Source of the DNA: Burkholderiales bacterium
Lineage (GTDB): Bacteria; Pseudomonadota; Gammaproteobacteria; Burkholderiales; JACMKV01
Assembly: GCA_013695435.1 (NCBI GenBank)
Contig: JACDAM010000297.1
Span: forward strand, 1-48,882
Reading direction: 5' to 3'
Length of the DNA: 48,882 bases
Under the pieces are notes generated by a model that was not told the DNA's origin, made no database searches, and saw only the letters and a program-made list of their open reading frames with translations. Below, one piece after another: positions 38,980-48,882 of this stretch. The translations under genes were made by a program, and so were the position numbers. Each line of letters begins with the position of its first letter. Within the stretch, counting starts at the first letter, position 1.

Positions 38980-39018
38980 TGCCGGGTTTTCATCGCGGCT
39001 AGAGCAAGGTCCTTGCCA

Positions 39019-39718
39019 TCAGGCGCCTTTGCGTCGTTGAAAAACGCTGCCCAGACCAAAATACGCGATCGAGTCCTTCATGTTGGAAACGAAGCGCCAC
39101 CATGGCGACATGCCCGGATCGGTTACGTATTCCAGCGTGAGCACGACGCGCTGCTGATTGGCGCCGATCGGCGTCAGGCGGTGATGCAGCTTGTCGCCGA
39201 ACAGCACGAGCATGCCGGGCGCGGTCGCGAGCTGTCGCGTCTTGCCCGCGTTTTCCGCCCCCCGCGGCTGCTGGCAGCCGGTATTCGAGCCTGCTGTCCG
39301 AGCGATCGACAAGTCCGATCAGCACGGAGAAACGCTTGCCCTGGTAATACGAGCTGTCGTAGTGCCAGCCGATGTGATCGCCTTCTTCTGTGTAGTAATA
39401 CAGCGCATAGGTATGCGGATCGGCGGGCGGACACGGCAGGAGCTTGCGACCGGTGATCCGATCCAGATATTCCGCGAGCGCCGGCTGGCGATACAGCTCG
39501 CCGAACGATGGCGCCAGCCGATCGAGTTCGAAGCGGCTGATGCTGCCGCCTTTTTTATGTCTGGGAATGTAATTGCGATGAACCGCCGATTCGAGCCGCG
39601 GCAGTTCGGCCAGCAGGCGCTGCAACAGCGGCGCCGGCACAAAATCGGGCACGACAAGAAAGTCGCCTTGCGATCGAAACGACTCCGCGAGTTTCAAGAT
39701 ATCGATATCGGCGAACAT
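39019..39718 (-). pseudogene. 2OG-Fe(II) oxygenase (prolyl-4-hydroxylase-like), frameshifted in a C6/G6 run
   Basis: The N-terminal frame has GDHIGWHYDSSYY (HxD). After the run at 39258-39263 the protein continues in another frame: ENAGKTRQLATAPGMLVLFGDKLHHRLTP...RVVLTLEY (distal His and Arg). First gene of the phosphonate operon. Confidence 0.65.
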
Positions 39719-40022
39719 GGTGCGTTTATCCGGTTTAAGGAGAGGAACGAATCGGAAGCGTGCGGACGTTGAAAGATGCGCGTGTGATCATTGTAAACAG
39801 GCCTTTGACTGCGTTCGGCCGATTCTGGTTTGCTTGCACGCAGAGATCGAAGCGCGTGCTTGTCACAATATTTTAACGTGCCCGGAGGCTTTGCGTCATT
39901 CGGCCCTGGCGGGCGATGTAATTGTTAACTGTTCGTGACGCCGCCGTGATGTTGATTTTCCATACTGGGATCGTGATTTTTCGAAAAACAAACGTTCAAC
40001 CGCGAAGCGAAGGAGAGCCATC

Positions 40023-40331
40023 ATGAACCGCGATGAAATGATCAAAAAGCTGGTCAGCTATTCAGTCGAAACCGCGTTACGCAATCCGCAAGCCGAATGG
40101 ACGCGCCGGATTCTCGTGAAGGGGTTCGACGGATTCCATCGTATGCCCCCGAAAAAACTGGAACGCGAGCTGCAATTGCGCGGCCTGATCGGTTACGACG
40201 AACCAGACGATGTCTGCGAAGATTGCGCCGAATGCGACGAGAGCGATCTGATGGTGCTGCCGGGCGGTATGGTCGGCCCGAAGTGCTACACGGATAGCAG
40301 GCTGTCAGGCGAGCTTGCCGCGACGCAATGA
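40023..40331 (+). CDS. hypothetical small acidic Cys-containing protein
   Basis: 102 aa, strong SD (gaaggagagccatcATG), DDVCEDCAECDESD cluster. No family recognised. Confidence 0.5.
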   Translation: MNRDEMIKKLVSYSVETALRNPQAEWTRRILVKGFDGFHRMPPKKLERELQLRGLIGYDEPDDVCEDCAECDESDLMVLPGGMVGPKCYTDSRLSGELAATQ

Positions 40332-40438
40332 GTTGTGATAAAACTTTGAAACTCGCGTGATAAGCTGGTGAACCAGTTCGAACAAACTGGTTATGAGCGC
40401 GATGAAGCGTTCGTCAATCAACTCCAGGAGAAACAAAA

Positions 40439-40738
40439 ATGCTCAAATTATCCCGAATGGCAATGATGTCGGCCGTGATTGCATCGTCGCTGGTCGGCGC
40501 TTCGATCGCCACCGCCCAGGACGTGATGTTCGCCACCGGCGGTTACGCGCGCGGCGGCAAGGGCTTGCGCACGATGAAAGTGATGAAAGCGATGGACAAG
40601 GACGCCGACCATTTCGTGACGATGGACGAGTTCATGGCGATGAACGAAACGGTTTTCAAAAAGATGGATAAAAACAGCGACGGCAAAATCAGCGTCGAGG
40701 AATGGCTCGACAAGCAGCGTAAATCGGACGGCGGCTAA
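40439..40738 (+). CDS. periplasmic EF-hand calcium-binding protein
   Basis: Signal peptide and two EF loops: DKDADHFVTMDE and the canonical DKNSDGKISVEE. Confidence 0.75.
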   Translation: MLKLSRMAMMSAVIASSLVGASIATAQDVMFATGGYARGGKGLRTMKVMKAMDKDADHFVTMDEFMAMNETVFKKMDKNSDGKISVEEWLDKQRKSDGG

Positions 40739-40801
40739 TGAGCGAACCTTACTTGAGCAGTCATCGGAACAGCCGATAATCGTCCCGCAGCGAATGCACC
40801 G

Positions 40802-40835
40802 GCAAAGGCGGCCCTTCTGGGCCGCTTTGCTTTTC
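40802..40835 (+). terminator. rho-independent terminator after the EF-hand gene
   Basis: gcaaaggcggccc-ttct-gggccgctttgc followed by tttt. Confidence 0.6.
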
Positions 40836-40992
40836 ACGGCCCTGCTCCACGCATCTTTGCGCCGCATCGCCCGCCAAAATCTAGCGCAGTGCGGGGGCGC
40901 GAAGGGATAGGGCGCGTCGCACGCCATGAGCAAGGCAGCGCGCGGTGTCAATCGCTTCACGCCTCCAGCTGGTTACATAAAGGAGCGAAATC

Positions 40993-41887
40993 ATGATTCA
41001 TCACATCAAATTTTCCGTCAAAGCGGCGCTGCTGTCGGCGCTCATGGCGAACAGCCATGCGCAAACGGTCGACAAAAAGCGCTGACCCTCGGTGGCGCGA
41101 ACCGTGTAATCGCCGCCGCGATAGCCGAAGCCAAACGCCTGAACGCGCCGGGCGCCGCCATTGCCGTCGTCGATGACGGCGGCAATCTGGTTGCCGTCGA
41201 GCGCCTCGATGACACGTTTGCGGCCGGCGCCAACATTTCCATCGGCAAGGCGCGCACCGCGGCGCTGTTCAAAAAGCCGACCAAAGCATTCGAAGACACA
41301 ATCAACAAAGGCCGCACGACCATGGTCACCGTCCTGGGCGATGTGCAGGGATTCACGCCGCTCTAAGGCGGCATTCCTTTGACCGTCGATGGCCAGGTCA
41401 TCGGCGGCATCGGCGCTCAGAGCGCGCAGCAGGACGAAGAACTCGCGCTCGCCGGCGCGGCTGCTTTGCAAAGAGGTGTGGCAGGGCCGGCAGGTGCGGG
41501 CAAAACGCCGGCCGCGGTCACGTATTTCGGCAACGATAAAGTCGCCGCCGGTTTCCGCACCGATGCCTCGCTGCTCGCAACGGGCGCCTACAAAGTGAAC
41601 ACAAGTCGTCGCGACAAGCCGGGGCTCGCCGAAGTGCACGCGCATGAGACCGATATCTTCCACTTTCTCGAAGGCTCGGCAGTGATAGTCACCGGCGGCG
41701 AAGTCGTCGATGCGAAAATTACGGCGGTTGGCGAAACGCGCGGCAGCGAAATCGCTGGCGGGCAGTCGCAGCGGGTCGCGAAAGGCGATGTACTCGTCCT
41801 TCCCGAAGGCGTGCCGCACTGGTTCAAGAAATCGATGGGCCAGTGCTTTATTACGTCGTCAAATCTATTTCAGGAGGTGAAAAATGA
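40993..41887 (+). pseudogene. GlcG/HbpS-like (DUF336) heme-binding domain fused to a cupin domain, disrupted (2 frameshifts and an in-frame TAA)
   Basis: MIHHIKFSVKAALLSALMANSHAQTVDKK, then a shift in the A5 run at 41074-41078, then ALTLGGANRVIAAAIAEAKRLNAPGAAIAVVDDGGNLVAVERLD...FTPL. TAA at 41364-41366 is followed by GGIPLTVDGQVIGGIG...cupin (EVHAHETDIFHFLEGSAVIV...VLPEGVPHWFK). A shift near 41826-41831 leads to IDGPVLYYVVKSISGGEK and the stop. Confidence 0.65.
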
Positions 41888-42491
41888 AAGCCTGGTTGCA
41901 CGTGCTTTGCGCAATTGGCGCAGGATTTGTGCTGTCGGCCGCGGCGGGCGCCGAGGAACCCGTATTTCCGCATGCGCCCAAAGCAGCGATCGATCTGGCG
42001 ACTGTCGATGGCGTTGCGCTGTTGAACGGCGAATGGCGCTACAGCGACACCAGAATCGTCGAAGCGAGTTTCAAAAGCGCCGGCGCCGACGGCCAGCCCA
42101 CCGGGCGAACGGTCAAGAATTACGACTACGAACCGCGCTCCGGCGGTAGAGATTACGACGACCCGCATTGGGAAATCATCGCGGCCGACAGCCTGAGCAA
42201 AAGGCGCGGCAATGGCCGGCTCGGCTTCAACTGGTATCGGATCAATCTGACCGTGCCCGCACGCGTCGGCGATTTTGTAACGGCAGGTTCGACCGCGGTG
42301 TTCGAAACCGCGCTCGACGATTACTCCGAAATCTGGGTCGATGGCGAATATTGTCGCCGCAAGGCACCATCATCACGCCGCGCCATCCGCACAATCTCGC
42401 GTGGGGCGATGCCGACGGCAAGACGCTTTATCTGACCGCGCAATCGGGTCTGTACCGGATGCGCTTGAACATCGAAGGAGTGCGGCCATGA
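41884..42491 (+). pseudogene. remnant of a secreted SMP-30/gluconolactonase-family protein (internal deletion with frame change)
   Basis: Signal peptide and N-terminal domain up to ...DDYSEIWVDGE. Around 42350 the frame changes and joins directly to the extreme C-terminus GTIITPRHPHNLAWGDADGKTLYLTAQSGLYRMRLNIEGVRP. The beta-propeller body is missing. Confidence 0.5.
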
Positions 42492-42622
42492 AGTCTGGTT
42501 TGTTTTTTCGAGCGGGTGATCAGGTTGTCGTTCGGCCGCCGGCTACGCCACCCGGGAAGCTTTGACCGGGTTTTGCGAAAGCCCGCGCGAGCGTTGGGAT
42601 AAACAACAACCCGGATAGCTTC

Positions 42623-42665
42623 GGATTACTCCCTTCCACTTGCCGGGAGGGCCGGGGTGGGCGCG
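42623..42665 (-). repeat. REP-like hairpin element, copy 2a
   Basis: ctcccttccacttgccgggagggccggggtggg is the reverse-orientation relative of the 4063-4115 copy. Confidence 0.5.
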
Positions 42666-42672
42666 ATCCGGG

Positions 42673-42725
42673 ATCACTCGGTTTGCTCCCTCCCCACTTG
42701 CTTGGGGAAGGCCGGGCGGGGAAGC
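42673..42725 (-). repeat. REP-like hairpin element, copy 2b
   Basis: cactcggtttgctccctccccacttgcttggggaaggccgggcgggg aligns closely with the reverse complement of copy 1 (gaattcgggttgcttcctccccacttgctggggagggctggggtgggg). Confidence 0.6.
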
Positions 42726-42874
42726 GGCTAACGCAACCCAATTTCCACCCGCCATCGAATAATGTAAACAGGCCCGGAAAGCACGCTCGGAAATGACCAT
42801 CATCCGCATCGTTTTTCTTGTCGCGACAAAACTGTTACATCCGCTTGAACAGGACGTGAATTCGCTCTCCCACA

Positions 42875-43120
42875 ATGAAATCAACATTGATGGGAGTCGC
42901 GATGAATCAGTTCAAGCTCTTAACGAGTCTCGCCGCAGCTGCGGTCATAGCGGCGTTCAGTCATCTGTCCGCCGCGGAAGTCGCCAGCCCGGCCCCGGAG
43001 CCATGCGGCTTGACGCGCGCTTTGCGAACTATCCAATGGGTCGAGTTGGTGAAAAAACAATCGTCCGGTCGCGATGCGATGGCTGCGTTCGAGCAAATGT
43101 TTCGGCAGGGCGGTGATTAG
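42875..43120 (+). CDS. hypothetical small secreted protein
   Basis: 81-aa ORF, or 72 aa from MNQFKLL at 42902, with a signal-peptide-like N-terminus. No SD or family support. Confidence 0.35.
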   Translation: MKSTLMGVAMNQFKLLTSLAAAAVIAAFSHLSAAEVASPAPEPCGLTRALRTIQWVELVKKQSSGRDAMAAFEQMFRQGGD

Positions 43121-43210
43121 AAGGCTGCTGAAAAACGTAGCGAGCACCAGCCACAAGAAGTGGCAAATCGGAATCGCCGCTTGCTCGGAAATGACAGGAT
43201 CAGCGAACCC

Positions 43211-45487
43211 TCAGCGGGTTTCCAGAGGTAAACCGAACGAAAACGTGGTACCCGTCAGCGGCGCGCTTTCGACCTTGATTTCGCTGTGGTGCAGATCGCA
43301 GATGCGCTTGACGATGGCGAGCCCCAGACCGGCGCCTGCCGGCTCCGTGCCCCTGGCCTTATCGACCTTGTAAAAACGCTCGAAAATATGCGCGACATCC
43401 TTGGCCGGAATGCCGCTGCCGGTATCGCTGACCCGCACCATTACGTGTTGTTCATGCCGCGCAACCGAAACCGTCACGATGCCGCCGGTGCCCGTGTGTT
43501 TCAACGCGTTATCGAGCAGGTTATCGATGGCGCGCTCGAGCAGGCCGATATCCGCGCGCACCAGACCGACCTCCTCGATATCGGCGCGCAGGGTAACGCC
43601 CTTGCTTTCGGCCGCGAGCGAAAATTTTTGCACGACGTCTTGCGCCAGATCGCCAAGCTGGGCCGGTTCGGGATCGATTTCATAGCCGGAAAAATCGAGC
43701 TTGGCGAGCTCGAACAGTTCCGAGATCAACGCGCCGAGAGTCTCGCTCTGCTTGACGGCAATCTGCAGATAGTTGCGGCGCGTCTCCGCAACCAGGTCGT
43801 CGCCTTTCATGAGCAGCGTTTCCAGATAACCGCGAACCGCGGCAAGCGGCGTGCGCAAATCGTGCGAGACATTGGCGATCAGATCGCGGCGCAAATACAC
43901 GTTCTCCTCACTGAGCTTGTTCTTCAGCGCTTCGATTTCCTCATAAGCCTGGACGTTGGCGATGGCGAGCGCGATCTGACTGGCGACCTCCTGCAGAAAC
44001 TCGAAATCGCTTTGCGAAAACTGGTCTGTCGACTTGCTGCCGATACCGAGGATGCCTATCGTCTTGTCGCCGGCGACCAGGGGTAACGCGCAGTGCGAGC
44101 GGATACCGGCTTTGAGCAGACCCTCATCGAACGAATAGCAGCGCTCGTTTTGGAGATCGTTGCGCAACAGCGCCCGCTGGAAATCGAAAGGAATGTTGCC
44201 GCGCCTGCCGCGCACATCGAGCAAATGGCCGACGACAAGCTGATCGGGCGAGAACGAGCCGTCGAGCGCGTAAACGCGCAGATCGTCGATCGCCGGCTCG
44301 TAGATCGCAATCGCCGCCCGATCATGGGAAATCACGCGTTTCAAGGCCTCGCGCAGCGCGTGCAACAAATCCGATAGCTTGAGGCTTGTGATGATGGAAT
44401 TGTTGAGCTGCAGAAGCGCGAGCTGGCGTTCCTGGGCTTTCAGCCGTTCGAGTTCGGCGCCGGCGCGCGCGGCAAAAGTCTGGATGACCGACAGTTCGCG
44501 CGGCAGCGATTGCATCGGACGGGTGTCGAGGACCACGAGGTGCCCGATGACCTGCATGGCGTGATCGAGCAGCGGCAATCCGAAATAGCTTTCGGCTTCG
44601 AGATCGACGAGATCGTGGTCTTCCGGAAACTGCGCCTGCAGCCGATCCGGAAAAAACGCGGTCTTGCCTTCGAGCACTACGCGGCACGGCGTTGCGGCGA
44701 CATCGTATTCGAAGTTTACCCCGAAGCCATCCCCTTTCCAGAAAGCGCGGCTTTTTGCACGCTGCCGCCGCTCGCCCTGGCACTCCGCGACAAATACATA
44801 GCGGACGTCGATCGCCTGCGCGAGATTCCGCACCAGCGATTTGAAAAATTCGCCGTCCGTGACCGACACTGTGCCGGCAGCGATTGCAAGCAGCATCCGC
44901 TCCGATTGTTTGCGCTCGATGAACTGGCCGATCTCGGCGCCGATCACGTCGAAAACCTTGAGCAGATCGGCGTCGGGCGAACGCTTGTCGAAGCTGAGAA
45001 TACCATTACGCCGAGAACATCGGCGCCGATCCGGATCGGAAAACCGAAGGCCGGCGTTCAGTCCGGCTTGGCCGCGATCGGGGCGCGGAAAATTGTCGTC
45101 GGCGCGCACGTCTTCGATCCACATCGCTTTGCCGTGAGCCCAGACTCGGCCTGGCAAGCCAATGCCGCGCGCGAAGCTTCGCCCTCTGCTCGCCACGGTG
45201 AATTCGGCCGCCGAAACCGAAGGCGCATGCCAGCCGTCTTCGCAGCGCAGCAACTGCGCGGCGCGATCGACCAGCCAGATCTCGCCCGTCGCCCAGCCGA
45301 GATTTTCGCAAACGGCCTGCAAAATCCGCGGCGCTGCTTCGTTCAGGGACGACGCTTCGGCGAGAACGCGCGCGACCGCGTATTGCGCGGCGAGCCGGCG
45401 CTCGGTGCGCGTCGTCATGTTGTCGATGATGCGATAAGGTTCGCGGCCTACGATGCTCTTGCCGTCATCGGAAACACGGGCTTCCAT
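43211..45487 (-). CDS. multi-GAF sensor histidine kinase (orphan, no adjacent response regulator)
   Basis: About 758 aa from MEARVSDD (SD ggag). Several GAF-like regions, H-box ANVSHDLRTPLAAV, N/G boxes (DNLLDNALKHT, DTGSGIP, GAGLGLAIV). One GAF strand appears scrambled by compensating indels (see findings). Confidence 0.85.
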   Translation of the reverse strand: MEARVSDDGKSIVGREPYRIIDNMTTRTERRLAAQYAVARVLAEASSLNEAAPRILQAVCENLGWATGEIWLVDRAAQLLRCEDGWHAPSVSAAEFTVASRGRSFARGIGLPGRVWAHGKAMWIEDVRADDNFPRPDRGQAGLNAGLRFSDPDRRRCSRRNGILSFDKRSPDADLLKVFDVIGAEIGQFIERKQSERMLLAIAAGTVSVTDGEFFKSLVRNLAQAIDVRYVFVAECQGERRQRAKSRAFWKGDGFGVNFEYDVAATPCRVVLEGKTAFFPDRLQAQFPEDHDLVDLEAESYFGLPLLDHAMQVIGHLVVLDTRPMQSLPRELSVIQTFAARAGAELERLKAQERQLALLQLNNSIITSLKLSDLLHALREALKRVISHDRAAIAIYEPAIDDLRVYALDGSFSPDQLVVGHLLDVRGRRGNIPFDFQRALLRNDLQNERCYSFDEGLLKAGIRSHCALPLVAGDKTIGILGIGSKSTDQFSQSDFEFLQEVASQIALAIANVQAYEEIEALKNKLSEENVYLRRDLIANVSHDLRTPLAAVRGYLETLLMKGDDLVAETRRNYLQIAVKQSETLGALISELFELAKLDFSGYEIDPEPAQLGDLAQDVVQKFSLAAESKGVTLRADIEEVGLVRADIGLLERAIDNLLDNALKHTGTGGIVTVSVARHEQHVMVRVSDTGSGIPAKDVAHIFERFYKVDKARGTEPAGAGLGLAIVKRICDLHHSEIKVESAPLTGTTFSFGLPLETR

Positions 45488-45782
45488 TGTTCGACTCCGC
45501 GGGCGAGCTAGCTGATTATGATGCTCTTTACGACGCTGGCGAGTGTCCTCCACAGTACATAGGCCACATCGAAAATAATAGCTGTTATTCCCGCGTGGAT
45601 TCAACGCGAGGCAGCAGGCTGCGGAGAAATTCCGAACCTTCAAAGCAAACGGGTTCCCTTGGCCGCCCTGTGATGAAACTTTTAACTCGTCGCGAGATTT
45701 GCGTGATTTTCGCTGCGCACACTCGCATCACAGATCGGCGACGCCGTCTGTTCTTCCCTCAAACCACGGAAAGGAATTCGTC

Positions 45783-46070
45783 ATGAACCAATCAGATCGC
45801 ATCATCCGCTCTGCAATCGCCAGCTTGCTCGCGCTGGGTGTCGTCGGCAATGCCGGGCACGCCGTGGCCGCCAAAGGCGACAACGAAAAATGCGCGGGCA
45901 TCGTCAAGGCCGGCAAGAACGACTGCGGTACCAGCTACAGCTCGTGCGCCGGATCGGCCAAGGTCGATAACGACAAGGAAGCCTGGGTTTATCTCCCCAA
46001 AGGCACGTGCGAAAAAATCGTCGGCGCGAGCATCACGACTTCCGCGCATGCGAAGCCCGGCGGTAAGTAA
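45783..46070 (+). CDS. bufA: DUF2282-family RiPP precursor (BufA1/GigA-like bufferin precursor)
   Basis: 95 aa. Sec signal peptide ...GHAVAA. Mature region has 4 Cys in the family pattern EKCAGIVKAGKNDCGT..SSCAGSAK...PKGTCEKI. Followed by DUF692 and DUF2063 genes. Confidence 0.8.
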   Translation: MNQSDRIIRSAIASLLALGVVGNAGHAVAAKGDNEKCAGIVKAGKNDCGTSYSSCAGSAKVDNDKEAWVYLPKGTCEKIVGASITTSAHAKPGGK

Positions 46071-46120
46071 GGCGCGCAGCAACGCTACCCATCGCCAGGT
46101 AGTGCGACGTGCTTAGGTCG

Positions 46121-46167
46121 TCACCCCCATCCCGGCCTTCCCCCGTCCAGGGGGAAGGAGTACAGCG
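46121..46167 (+). repeat. REP-like hairpin element, copy 3 (between bufA and bufB)
   Basis: cacccccatcccggccttcccccgtccagggggaagg. Perfect 9-bp stem 46136-46144/46150-46158 with a 5-nt loop. Same orientation and family as copy 1. Confidence 0.6.
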
Positions 46168-46222
46168 TTTCCGCGTCGAGCTAGAAGGGGTATCGCGCTC
46201 CGCCGTCGGGTGGGAAGGGGTA

Positions 46223-47062
46223 ATGCATTCGACCAGCAACGGGATTCCCCCGCGCGCCGGGATTGGGTTGCGCGCACCGCATTACCGCGAATTGCTCGAA
46301 CGTCTGCCCGATATCGGCTGGCTCGAAGTCCACAGTGAAAACTATTTCGGCGGCGGCCAGCCGCTGCATTTTCTCGAACGCGCGCGCCGGCATTATCCAC
46401 TGAGCTTGCACGGCGTCGGTCTGTCGCTCGGTTCGACCGACAAGTTGTCGCACGAACATTTGAACCTGCTCAAATGGCTGATCGTGCGTATCGAGCCGGC
46501 GATGGTTTCCGAGCATCTGTGCTGGGGCTCGATCGGCGGGCGTCATCTGAACGACCTGCTGCCTTTGCCGTACACCGAAGAAGCGCTCGCTCTGGTCTGC
46601 TCGCACGTTGGCGAAACGCAGGATTTTCTGGCGCGCCAAATCTTTGTCGAAAACGTTTCGAGCTATTTGCAGTTCACGCATTCGACCTTGCCGGAATGGG
46701 AGTTCGTGCGCGAAGTCGCGGCGCGCACCGACTGCGGCATTTTGCTCGACGTCAACAACATCTATGTGAATTCGATCAATCATGGTTTCGACGCGTCGCG
46801 TTATCTGCGCGGCATTCCGCGCGCGGTCGTCGGCGAGATCCATCTGGCCGGCTTCGATGCCGGAGCCGATTGCCTGATCGATACACACGCGAAGCCGGTC
46901 GCCGATGCCGTGTGGTCGCTGTATCGGGAAGCGGTCGCACGCTTCGGACCGACGCCGACCTTGATCGAATGGGATGCCGATATTCCCGCGCTCGACGTGC
47001 TGCTCGCGGAAGCGCGCAAAGCGGATTCATCAATGGAGGCGCGCTATGCACTCGCTTCGTGA
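46223..47062 (+). CDS. bufB: DUF692-family multinuclear non-heme iron oxidase (MNIO, BufB/MbnB-like)
   Basis: 279 aa from the ATG at 46223. The ORF-track start at 46109 reads through the REP element. GIGLRAPHY...WLEVHSENYF...LSLHGVGLSLGS...EHLCW...LLDVNNIYVN...IHLAG motifs of UPF0276/DUF692. Confidence 0.88.
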   Translation: MHSTSNGIPPRAGIGLRAPHYRELLERLPDIGWLEVHSENYFGGGQPLHFLERARRHYPLSLHGVGLSLGSTDKLSHEHLNLLKWLIVRIEPAMVSEHLCWGSIGGRHLNDLLPLPYTEEALALVCSHVGETQDFLARQIFVENVSSYLQFTHSTLPEWEFVREVAARTDCGILLDVNNIYVNSINHGFDASRYLRGIPRAVVGEIHLAGFDAGADCLIDTHAKPVADAVWSLYREAVARFGPTPTLIEWDADIPALDVLLAEARKADSSMEARYALAS

Positions 47063-47823
47063 TCAGCAGCGCACATTCGCCGCCAGCCTGCTGGCGTCCG
47101 CGCATTGCGACGCCATCCTCGCCCGCCCGGGCATGGACGCGGACGCGCGGCTCGGCATCTATCGCAACAACGTATTCAGCAATTATCGCGAGGCGCTGCG
47201 CGCGGTTTATCCGGTCATCGAGCGCCTCGTCGGCAGCGAGTTCTTCCGCCATGCGGCCAATCGCTTCATCGCAACGCACGAATCGGTGAACGGCTACCTG
47301 CATCGTTTCGGCGAAGGCTTCGCCGATTTCCTGCAAGGTTTTCCGGGCGCCGAACACCTCGTTTTCCTGAGCGATACCGCGCATCTGGAATGGCTGATTC
47401 ACGAATCGTTTCATGCCGCGGACCATGCGCCGTTAGCGCTGCGGCGCCTGGCGGAAATCGGCCCGGGAGCAGTACGGCGCCCTGCGCTTCGAGATGCATC
47501 CGGCTTGCCGCCTGTTCGCATCGCCGTATCCGGTGCATCGCATCTGGCAGACAAATCAGCCGGAAGAACGCGGTGACGACCACGTCGATCTGGCCAGCGG
47601 CGGTGTCACGCTGCTGGTGCACCGCCGCGATTTCACTGTGGCGCTCGAACCGCTGGAAAAAAACGATTTCGCGTTGCTCAGCCTGATCGCCGCCGGGCAG
47701 CGTCTTGTGCTCGCCTGCGACCACGTGCTGCAAAGCGAGCCGGCATTTGACGCTGCGGTGTTTTTGCAGCGGCGCGTAATGGATGGGACGTTGGTGGATT
47801 TTCGCGTAGCGGGTTTTCGTTAA
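47046..47823 (+). pseudogene. bufC: DUF2063-family partner protein (BufC-like), frameshifted
   Basis: MHSLRDQQRTFAASLL...LGIYRNNVFSNYREALRAVYPVIERLVG (the DUF2063 signature). A 1-nt frame change at the G-run near 47465-47467 leads to EQYGALRFEMHPACRLFASPYPVHRIW... ending at 47823. Confidence 0.75.
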
Positions 47824-47834
47824 AGGAGATAACG

Positions 47835-48331
47835 ATGGAATTAGCGGCAAACAGAACGCAGACAATCAAGCGCGGTATCGGCTTTATCGATCGCTTCCGG
47901 CTTGCAACGCGCGTGCTCGAAGGGCTCAGCACCGTCCTCGATCTCGCGCTTCGCGTGTGGGTGGCGAACGTATTTTGGAAATCGGGACTGACCAAGATCG
48001 CGAGCTGGGATACGACGCTCGCGCTGATCGAAAACGAATATACCGTTCCTCTGCTGCCGCCGGAACTCGCGGCCGTGCGCGGCGCCGGCGCCGAAATATT
48101 TTGCCCGTGCTGCTGGTGCTGGTGCTGGGGCTGGGCTCGCGATTTGCTGCATTTGCGCTGTTCGTGTTCAACATCATCGCCGTGATCTCGTATCCCGATC
48201 TGTCGGAAGCCGGACGTACCGAACATTTTTACTGGGGCTTTTTGCTGCTTGTCACCTTGTTCCACGGGCCGGGCAAGCTGTCGATCGATCATCTGATCAG
48301 CCGCAAATTTTCAACGCGAGGCGCCGTATGA
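47835..48331 (+). pseudogene. DoxX-family membrane protein, frameshifted
   Basis: SD aaggag. ...ALRVWVANVFWKSGLTKIASWD...AAVRGAGAEI, then a frame change in the T-run at 48099-48102, then LPVLLVLVLGLGSRFAAFALFVFNIIAV...LLLVTLFHGPGKLSID. Confidence 0.7.
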
Positions 48332-48882
48332 ACGCCCCCGTCATCTGCGCGCCGTGCGAAAACCGGCTGCATCAAACCAGCATCCGCGAAACCACGCTCG
48401 ATGGACAACGCGCGATCGTCACCGGCGCCAATTCGGGTATCGGTGAGTCGATTGCGCGCGGCCTGGCCGAGGCCGGCACCGCGGTGGTCCTGAATTACGT
48501 GACCGGCGCCGAGCGCGCCGACGAGATCGTCGCCGACATCATCGCGGCCGGCGGCAAGGCGTCGCCGTCAAGGCCGACGTCAGCAACGAGTCGGAAGTGC
48601 AAGCGATGTTCCGCCGCACCTGCGCCGAATTCGGCAGCGTCGACATTCTGGTTGCCAACGCCGGCCTGCAGCAGGATGCCCCGCTGCACGAAATGACGCT
48701 GACGCAATGGAACAAGGTCATCGCGGTCAACCTGACCGGCCAGTTCCTGTGCGCGCGCGAAGCCCTGCGCGAATTTCTGCGGCGCGGCGTGCTGCGCGAC
48801 ATCTCGTGCTCGGCAGGCAAGATCATCTGCTTGTCGTCCGTGCATGACACGATTCCGTGGGCTGGGCACGTGAACTATGCGG
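48328..48882 (+). pseudogene. short-chain dehydrogenase/reductase (glucose-1-dehydrogenase-like), frameshifted and 3' end outside the window
   Basis: AIVTGANSGIGESIA (TGxxxGIG)...AAGGKA, then a 1-nt frame change near 48559-48562, then AVKADVSNESEVQAMF...DILVANAG...LSSVHDTIPWAGHVNYA. Confidence 0.7.

Follow-up and report, generated by a model that had tools for sequence, protein, structure and literature searches.

The 48,882-nucleotide contig JACDAM010000297.1 (assembly GCA_013695435.1), analyzed at its full length and referred to here as the window, belongs to an uncultured Burkholderiales species and carries a buf operon, a gene cluster for bufferins, peptides that once modified act as periplasmic chelators of Cu(I) and Cu(II) (PMC11626156). 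The operon consists of five co-directional plus-strand reading units that follow a divergent kinase gene. The first, bufA (45783–46070, plus strand), is intact and encodes a Buf1-type precursor of 95 aa that matches PF10048 (DUF2282/BufA1) with 82 bits. Its four cysteines, at positions 37, 48, 55 and 76, are all conserved, and its leader, judged by eye from the sequence without a predictor score, is of the Sec type, with an n-region (MNQSDRIIRS), then an h-region and a predicted cleavage after AVA29 (AVA/A). The second, bufB (46223–47062, plus strand), encodes a 279-aa MNIO (DUF692) maturase that scores 361 bits against PF05114 and 384.5 bits against NF050167 (MNIO_BufB), for which the equivalog cutoff is 310 bits.

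The three remaining genes are pseudogenes. The start of bufC (47046–47823, plus strand), which specified the DUF2063/HvfC-BufC partner, overlaps the end of bufB; PF09836 is matched in 47046–47576, and 47494–47823 is a weak match to the C-terminal part of HvfC in the profile search. In bufD (47835–48331, plus strand), the segments 47835–48185 and 47957–48331 match two halves of DoxX/HvfX. A glucose-1-dehydrogenase-like short-chain dehydrogenase/reductase (SDR) gene of the adh_short family (48328–48882, plus strand) overlaps bufD by ATGA, is translationally coupled to it and is cut by the contig end. These searches bear out the initial annotation, which had recognized from the letters alone a bufferin/gig-type DUF2282–DUF692–DUF2063–DoxX operon with a Sec-exported, four-cysteine precursor and a DUF692 enzyme; all four families lie where it had put them. 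By profiles and alignments, the precursor and the BufB-type MNIO of a Buf1-type cluster are present, while an intact BufC and an intact DoxX are not, and on this basis the locus reads as a Buf1-type bufferin biosynthetic cluster, bufA-bufB-bufC-bufD, with a lineage-specific coupled SDR gene.

Frame lesions in bufC, bufD and the SDR gene

Loci for comparison came from a BufB scan of one representative genome per species, which yielded 80 loci. The lesions were placed by DNA alignment to the closest relative locus, L007, from a Burkholderiales metagenome-assembled genome (MAG) with 92% BufB identity, in which the reading frames of bufC (262 aa), bufD (172 aa) and the SDR gene (286 aa) are uninterrupted, as they also are in L008 (77% identity). 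Compared with L007, bufC in the window has one extra base within CCCGGG at 47462–47467, after codon 140, and its first open reading frame (ORF), 47046–47576, consists of 140 native residues followed by 36 out-of-frame residues. The break lies between the N-terminal DUF2063 domain (Pfam 7–96) and the C-terminal RRE-like part, and the truncated protein loses the latter domain. In bufD, a 1-nt deletion at 48098–48103, after codon 88, is accompanied by an in-frame 6-nt CTGGTG duplication at about 48106–48116, while the SDR gene has lost 1 nt between 48561 and 48562, after codon 78. The first two positions agree with the frame changes that the initial annotation had estimated at about 47465 and 48099. 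A one-base correction restores a BufC of 258 aa, a BufD of 165 aa and, likewise, the SDR frame, and the repaired BufC gives one continuous HvfC match (profile positions 2–216 of 237). A split bufC was found in none of the 77 other species-level loci. Apparent in-frame stops in bufC or bufD of other loci were rejected as overshoots of high-scoring segment pairs (HSPs) past the natural gene ends. Separately, the bufA gene of a Gammaproteobacteria MAG (L036, 3056–3310) has a genuine nonsense codon in place of the conserved Glu that precedes its first cysteine (APKM*KCFG) and is another natural bufferin pseudogene.

The lesions recur outside the window. The identical precursor protein is encoded on six further contigs, which come from four NCBI assemblies plus a Logan run. 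Their identity to the window is 99.6–99.9%, with single-nucleotide polymorphisms (SNPs) setting them apart, and they therefore represent independent strains and assemblies. Sister strain L001 (GCA_051005035.1) has the same bufC insertion, and L002 (GCA_030856645.1) has the same bufC, bufD and SDR indels without the CTGGTG duplication in bufD; among the strains, no length polymorphism was found at any of the frameshift sites. Searched with the repaired BufC, about 5.8 billion protein clusters, covering about 15 billion proteins, contained no intact BufC above 83% identity, and the best intact match, at 83%, is that of the L007 species. For the window species, the BufC on record is the truncated 176-aa product, in three assemblies including the window's own contig, and a fourth assembly gives a contig-end fragment. 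An exact-protein look-up in a contig index recovered the precursor and the 96-aa C-terminal BufC ORF; the exact window BufB, the 176-aa BufC fragment and the 124-aa DoxX fragment were absent from this index because of strain SNPs. A scan of JGI metagenome contigs with the corrected BufC returned no relatives.

For the remainder of the contig, a Viterbi frame map based on codon usage was computed across the full window; it shows no frame switch in the first 39 kb, which hold roughly 35 genes. Ten tested ORFs from this part match Pfam profiles from end to end, and the full-length genes there include those for DnaX, DapA, a BamC-like protein, a SerB-like protein and a 1167-aa ORF. Since housekeeping genes on the same contig are intact, a generally error-prone assembly is excluded. 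Two kinds of candidate lesion in this part were examined and rejected: a supposed compensated frameshift in dnaX at 1363–1482 is a low-complexity Pro/Ala-rich linker, and same-frame neighbors that might have been split genes are all separate full-length genes.

Two explanations would make the frame changes something other than mutations. If they were sequencing or assembly errors, the true locus would be an ordinary intact bufferin operon, and the positions lend themselves to this, as all three lesions are single-base indels beside short runs (CCCGGG, TTTT and GCG/TCG), places prone to consensus errors, and indels look frequent relative to substitutions. We nevertheless regard error as highly improbable: identical indels appear in separately deposited, differently named assemblies that differ from the window by SNPs, the Logan assembly of another run has the same lesions in the kinase gene and at 41–42 kb (see below), the runs at the lesions are only 3–4 bases long, the genes of the first 39 kb keep their frames, and no intact BufC of this species is on record. 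The sequence comparisons indicate that the indels in bufC, bufD and the SDR gene are most likely genuine mutations. Between a dead pathway and assembly errors, the initial annotation had made no choice; the indels shared by independent assemblies favor the former and speak against the latter. That three consecutive genes have exactly one frame change each could also suggest programmed recoding, by ribosomal frameshifting or transcriptional slippage, or phase-variable switches on the accessory genes. The sites, however, contain no slippery heptamer and no long homopolymer, the shifts differ in direction (one extra nucleotide in bufC versus one lost in bufD and in the SDR gene), the sites are not conserved, with L007, L008 and 77 other loci in frame, and the strains show no difference in length there, so that programmed frameshifting was rejected and the chance of any such switch is, in our estimate, negligible.

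State of bufA and bufB and fate of the pathway

Neither protein of the window strain deviates at a conserved position: of the alignment columns with at least 95% conservation, BufB retains all 83 (among 80 homologues) and BufA all 13 (among 64 homologues). The view that precursor and oxidase are intact, as initially annotated, holds for this strain but fails for BufB in two sisters: in L001 (position 9591) and L002 (position 2293), C46841T produces BufB H207Y, while His207 is retained in the window and in L004. All 80 homologues have this histidine, which belongs to the HxAG motif and aligns with the metal-site His of the DUF692 structure 3BWW and of MbnB structures. It is probably the counterpart of the MbnB Fe2 ligand His192, a mapping taken from the motif order DxxN ... 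H ... DxH ... E and not from structural superposition. In MbnB, replacement of His192 lowers both iron content and activity (PMC9060507). Population SNPs across bufB-bufD stand at about two nonsynonymous to one synonymous, and bufB appears, from these variants, not to be protected in the population.

Promoter and terminator scans, and folding of the spacer between bufA and bufB, gave no signal above shuffled background (whole-spacer fold z = −1.34). A 9-bp GC-rich hairpin, CCTTCCCCC-GTCCA-GGGGGAAGG, lies within this spacer at 46136–46158, with indel polymorphisms just upstream, at 46121–46128, in L001 and L005; this hairpin could be a stabiliser of the precursor transcript or an attenuator.

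With respect to timing, dN/dS between the window and L007 is 0.10–0.22 for bufB, bufC, bufD and the SDR gene, at a dS of about 0.4, and with L008 as outgroup the window branch has no excess of amino-acid changes. The low ratios and the missing branch excess imply that purifying selection acted on these genes over almost the whole period after the window and L007 species diverged. As a means of dating or confirming decay, both tests were rejected, as they gave no signal. The inactivations are recent, yet older than the 0.3–0.4% divergence of the sampled strains.

What the lesions mean for function can be judged from Caulobacter, where BufC1 is required for modification both in vivo and in vitro, while DoxX is dispensable (PMC11626156). 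Given this published requirement and the broken bufC, the pathway is most likely dead; loss of function of the locus, read across from the Caulobacter genetics, is the most likely outcome. In functional relatives, BufB and BufC together turn cysteines of the Sec-exported precursor into 5-thiooxazoles and so produce periplasmic copper chelators; in the window species, independent 1-nt indels have recently broken bufC, bufD and the SDR gene. Given the broken bufC, the BufA of the window is predicted to carry no thiooxazole modification, and bufA and bufB would owe their unblemished state in this strain only to not having been hit so far. If three disruptive hits fell at random on the 2.96 kb, the 1.13 kb of bufA and bufB would be spared with a probability of about 0.24, and their intactness therefore needs no selection. 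We consider it very probable that the locus is a recently inactivated, decaying Buf1 bufferin cluster, brought to this state by genuine mutations, and we infer neutral decay of the locus as a whole.

In favor of decay, the repaired proteins deviate at otherwise invariant columns (Y107F in BufC; P33T, F65I and L88I in BufD; A51T in the SDR). Several observations weigh against it. The three broken genes have about 5 deviations in roughly 120 conserved columns, versus 0 of 96 in BufA and BufB. The contrast is marginal, at (121/217)^5 = about 0.05, and hints that BufA and BufB were constrained for longer than the broken genes. The absence of excess amino-acid change on the window branch, together with the low dN/dS, means that any decay must be very recent, and the ratio of indels to substitutions looks higher than in ordinary neutral decay. 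It is also possible that a second bufC or buf locus elsewhere in the genome complements in trans.

The last point leads to the alternative that the pathway still works, with intact BufA and BufB served by a BufC from elsewhere, by a split BufC or by a partner-independent MNIO, and with DoxX and the SDR being dispensable. Every conserved residue of BufA and BufB is kept, the Caulobacter DoxX can be lost, many genomes have several buf loci (PMC12452194), and the bufC break at codon 140 falls between domains, with an ATG at 47494 from which a C-terminal fragment could be translated. No Shine-Dalgarno-like sequence precedes 47494, however, and the first ORF runs past it, so that coupling is unlikely. 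The in vivo and in vitro requirement for BufC1 also stands against a working pathway, as do the two sister strains with BufB H207Y, which suggest that bufB is not kept intact across the population, the decay of the whole 10-kb neighborhood and the escape chance given above, by which intactness requires no selection. We consider a working pathway improbable. That bufA and bufB in particular remain functional after the loss of bufC, bufD and the SDR gene in cis, with a partner elsewhere, a split BufC or no partner, seems to us very unlikely; if this were true, the window strain would be a natural minimal bufferin system. Recent inactivation and decay remains the explanation that we prefer.

Probable decay of the surrounding region

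The last 10 kb of the contig form an accessory region, with disabling or damaging lesions in at least seven of its genes. Within 39000–48882 there are at least eight small indels and one nonsense codon, with no detectable excess of substitutions, while none were detected in the first 39 kb. The two accessory genes that the initial annotation had flagged as frameshifted are indeed broken, but the damage is wider than it had described, extending to the SDR gene, to the first GAF domain of the kinase and to three genes at 39–42.5 kb.

The divergent kinase gene (43211–45487, minus strand; 758 aa as called in L001) encodes, by its Pfam domains, a GAF-GAF-GAF-HisKA-HATPase histidine kinase, and its reading frame extends without a stop as far as a TTG at 45643. 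In the first GAF domain, some 18 residues (about 44993–45050) are scrambled by a compensated double frameshift, and the alternative frame there reads the canonical FGFPIRIGADVLGVMVFSA; restoring this frame raises the score from 39.8 to 67.3 bits for GAF_2 and from 19.1 to 34.8 bits for GAF. The double frameshift is common to the window, L001 and L003, which have no indel differences there. The orphan GAF histidine kinase named by the initial annotation as the nearby regulator is therefore present, but is itself damaged.

Farther upstream, a gene for a HalD-like 2OG-Fe(II) oxygenase (38999–39718, minus strand) carries a frameshift close to a G6 run (about 39265), its first frame covering the profile only to position 126 of 228, and the same lesion is found in L001. 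A gene for an HbpS/GlcG-like protein (40926–41470) has a TAA nonsense codon at 41364–41366, in the motif P-L-x-G-G-I-P-L, after which the frame continues into a cupin domain. In the broken gene at 41884–42491, where an unrelated N-terminal ORF is joined to a short out-of-frame tail ending DGKTLYLTA...LYRMRL, the 183-aa ORF at 41884–42435 changes frame at about 42352 into this tail; the tail looks gluconolactonase-like but has no Pfam match. The lesions in these last two genes are found in L001 and L003 as well. The oxygenase gene adjoins a phosphonate-type PEP-mutase/nucleotidyltransferase cluster. At 40439–40738, 5 kb upstream of bufA, lies a gene for a small secreted EF-hand protein of 99 aa with a signal peptide; PMC12452194 mentions bufferin-like precursors that are fused to EF-hands.

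Related loci and known systems

Extracytoplasmic function (ECF) sigma factors and NrsF anti-sigma regulators are frequent in Buf1 clusters without defining them. Searches of the 48.9-kb window with phmmer and hmmsearch seeded with RpoE found no ECF sigma-like ORF, in line with the initial annotation, which had noted no ECF sigma/anti-sigma pair by the operon; the same RpoE-seeded search found such ORFs in 23 of the 80 related loci. An SDR gene stands directly after bufD in ten loci (L007, L008, L011, L012, L014–L017, L019 and L024), with 70–81% identity, at 2075–2935 in L007 and 8060–8878 in L008, and it overlaps bufD by ATGA in L007 as in the window. ECF sigma genes are missing from all ten of these closest relatives. 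All SDR carriers in this set are MAGs, Accumulibacter and Methylotenera among them. Dehydrogenase and kinase partners go unmentioned in a genomic survey of MNIO clusters (PMC12452194), and the coupled SDR gene together with the missing ECF sigma factor may, from these gene neighborhoods, mark an undescribed five-gene bufferin subtype with different regulation.

Gene order also varies among the relatives. In L010–L012, L014–L016 and L019 the order is bufB-bufC-bufA-bufD(-SDR), with the precursor gene after the partner gene, and carriers of this order include Accumulibacter, Methylotenera and other Betaproteobacteria. L011 (2510–5723) and L060 (4472–6014 and 7609–9424) have genes for a PAS-GAF protein, an OmpR-type response regulator and a HAMP kinase next to the buf genes or among them; the kinase cores are 44–49% identical to the window kinase, and in Paraburkholderia PAS-GAF/two-component genes lie between bufC and bufA. 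Overall, GAF or kinase HSPs occur in 23 of the 80 loci. This distribution suggests two-component rather than ECF control of the buf genes in the clade of the window.

The locus is an ordinary, recently decayed member of the Buf1 bufferin family, a kind already known, and beyond annotation it matters little. It indicates that point inactivation can cost a free-living Burkholderiales lineage its bufferin cluster, a type of locus widely seen as a defence against copper, and it is a clean example of apparent assembly errors that are real pseudogenising mutations. In BufB, H207Y is a natural substitution at a residue that one would expect to be essential. The bufferin field may also make use of the SDR gene coupled to doxX in the closest relatives, often near PAS/GAF sensors and two-component systems.

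Among the known systems, buf1ABCD of Caulobacter vibrioides (bufferin 1; Leprevost et al., PNAS 2024, PMC11626156) matches the window in its four families and their order and, like it, has a DUF2282 precursor with a Sec signal and four cysteines. In contrast to the Caulobacter cluster, bufC and bufD of the window are frameshifted, no SigF/NrsF (ECF sigma/anti-sigma) genes lie nearby, an SDR gene is coupled to bufD and a GAF kinase gene diverges from bufA. The gold-induced gig operon of Cupriavidus metallidurans, whose host is also a member of the Burkholderiales, is likened to the window by literature description only; the bufferin papers class gig and gig-like operons as the same four-gene kind as buf (PMC11626156). 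The Hvf system of Haemophilus influenzae (HvfA oxazolin precursor, HvfB MNIO, HvfC and the DoxX protein HvfX; PMC11252979) has a homologous MNIO/DUF2063/DoxX trio, but the window proteins stay below the Hvf equivalog cutoffs, at 235 of 360 bits for HvfB, 73.6 of 142 for HvfC (corrected protein) and 46 of 80 for HvfX, and the precursor is a DUF2282 protein where that of Hvf is of the EGKCG-repeat type. Methanobactin MbnABC shares with the window BufB the MNIO fold and the order of metal-ligand motifs, such that BufB H63, H98, E143, D176 and N179 parallel MbnB His54, His90, Glu133, Asp163 and Asn166, and H207, D220, H222 and E249 parallel His192, Asp208, His210 and Glu239. The window BufB is nevertheless distant from MbnB (51 bits versus a cutoff of 325), and the methanobactin system differs from the window in its partner protein and in its precursor type, which is not Sec-exported.

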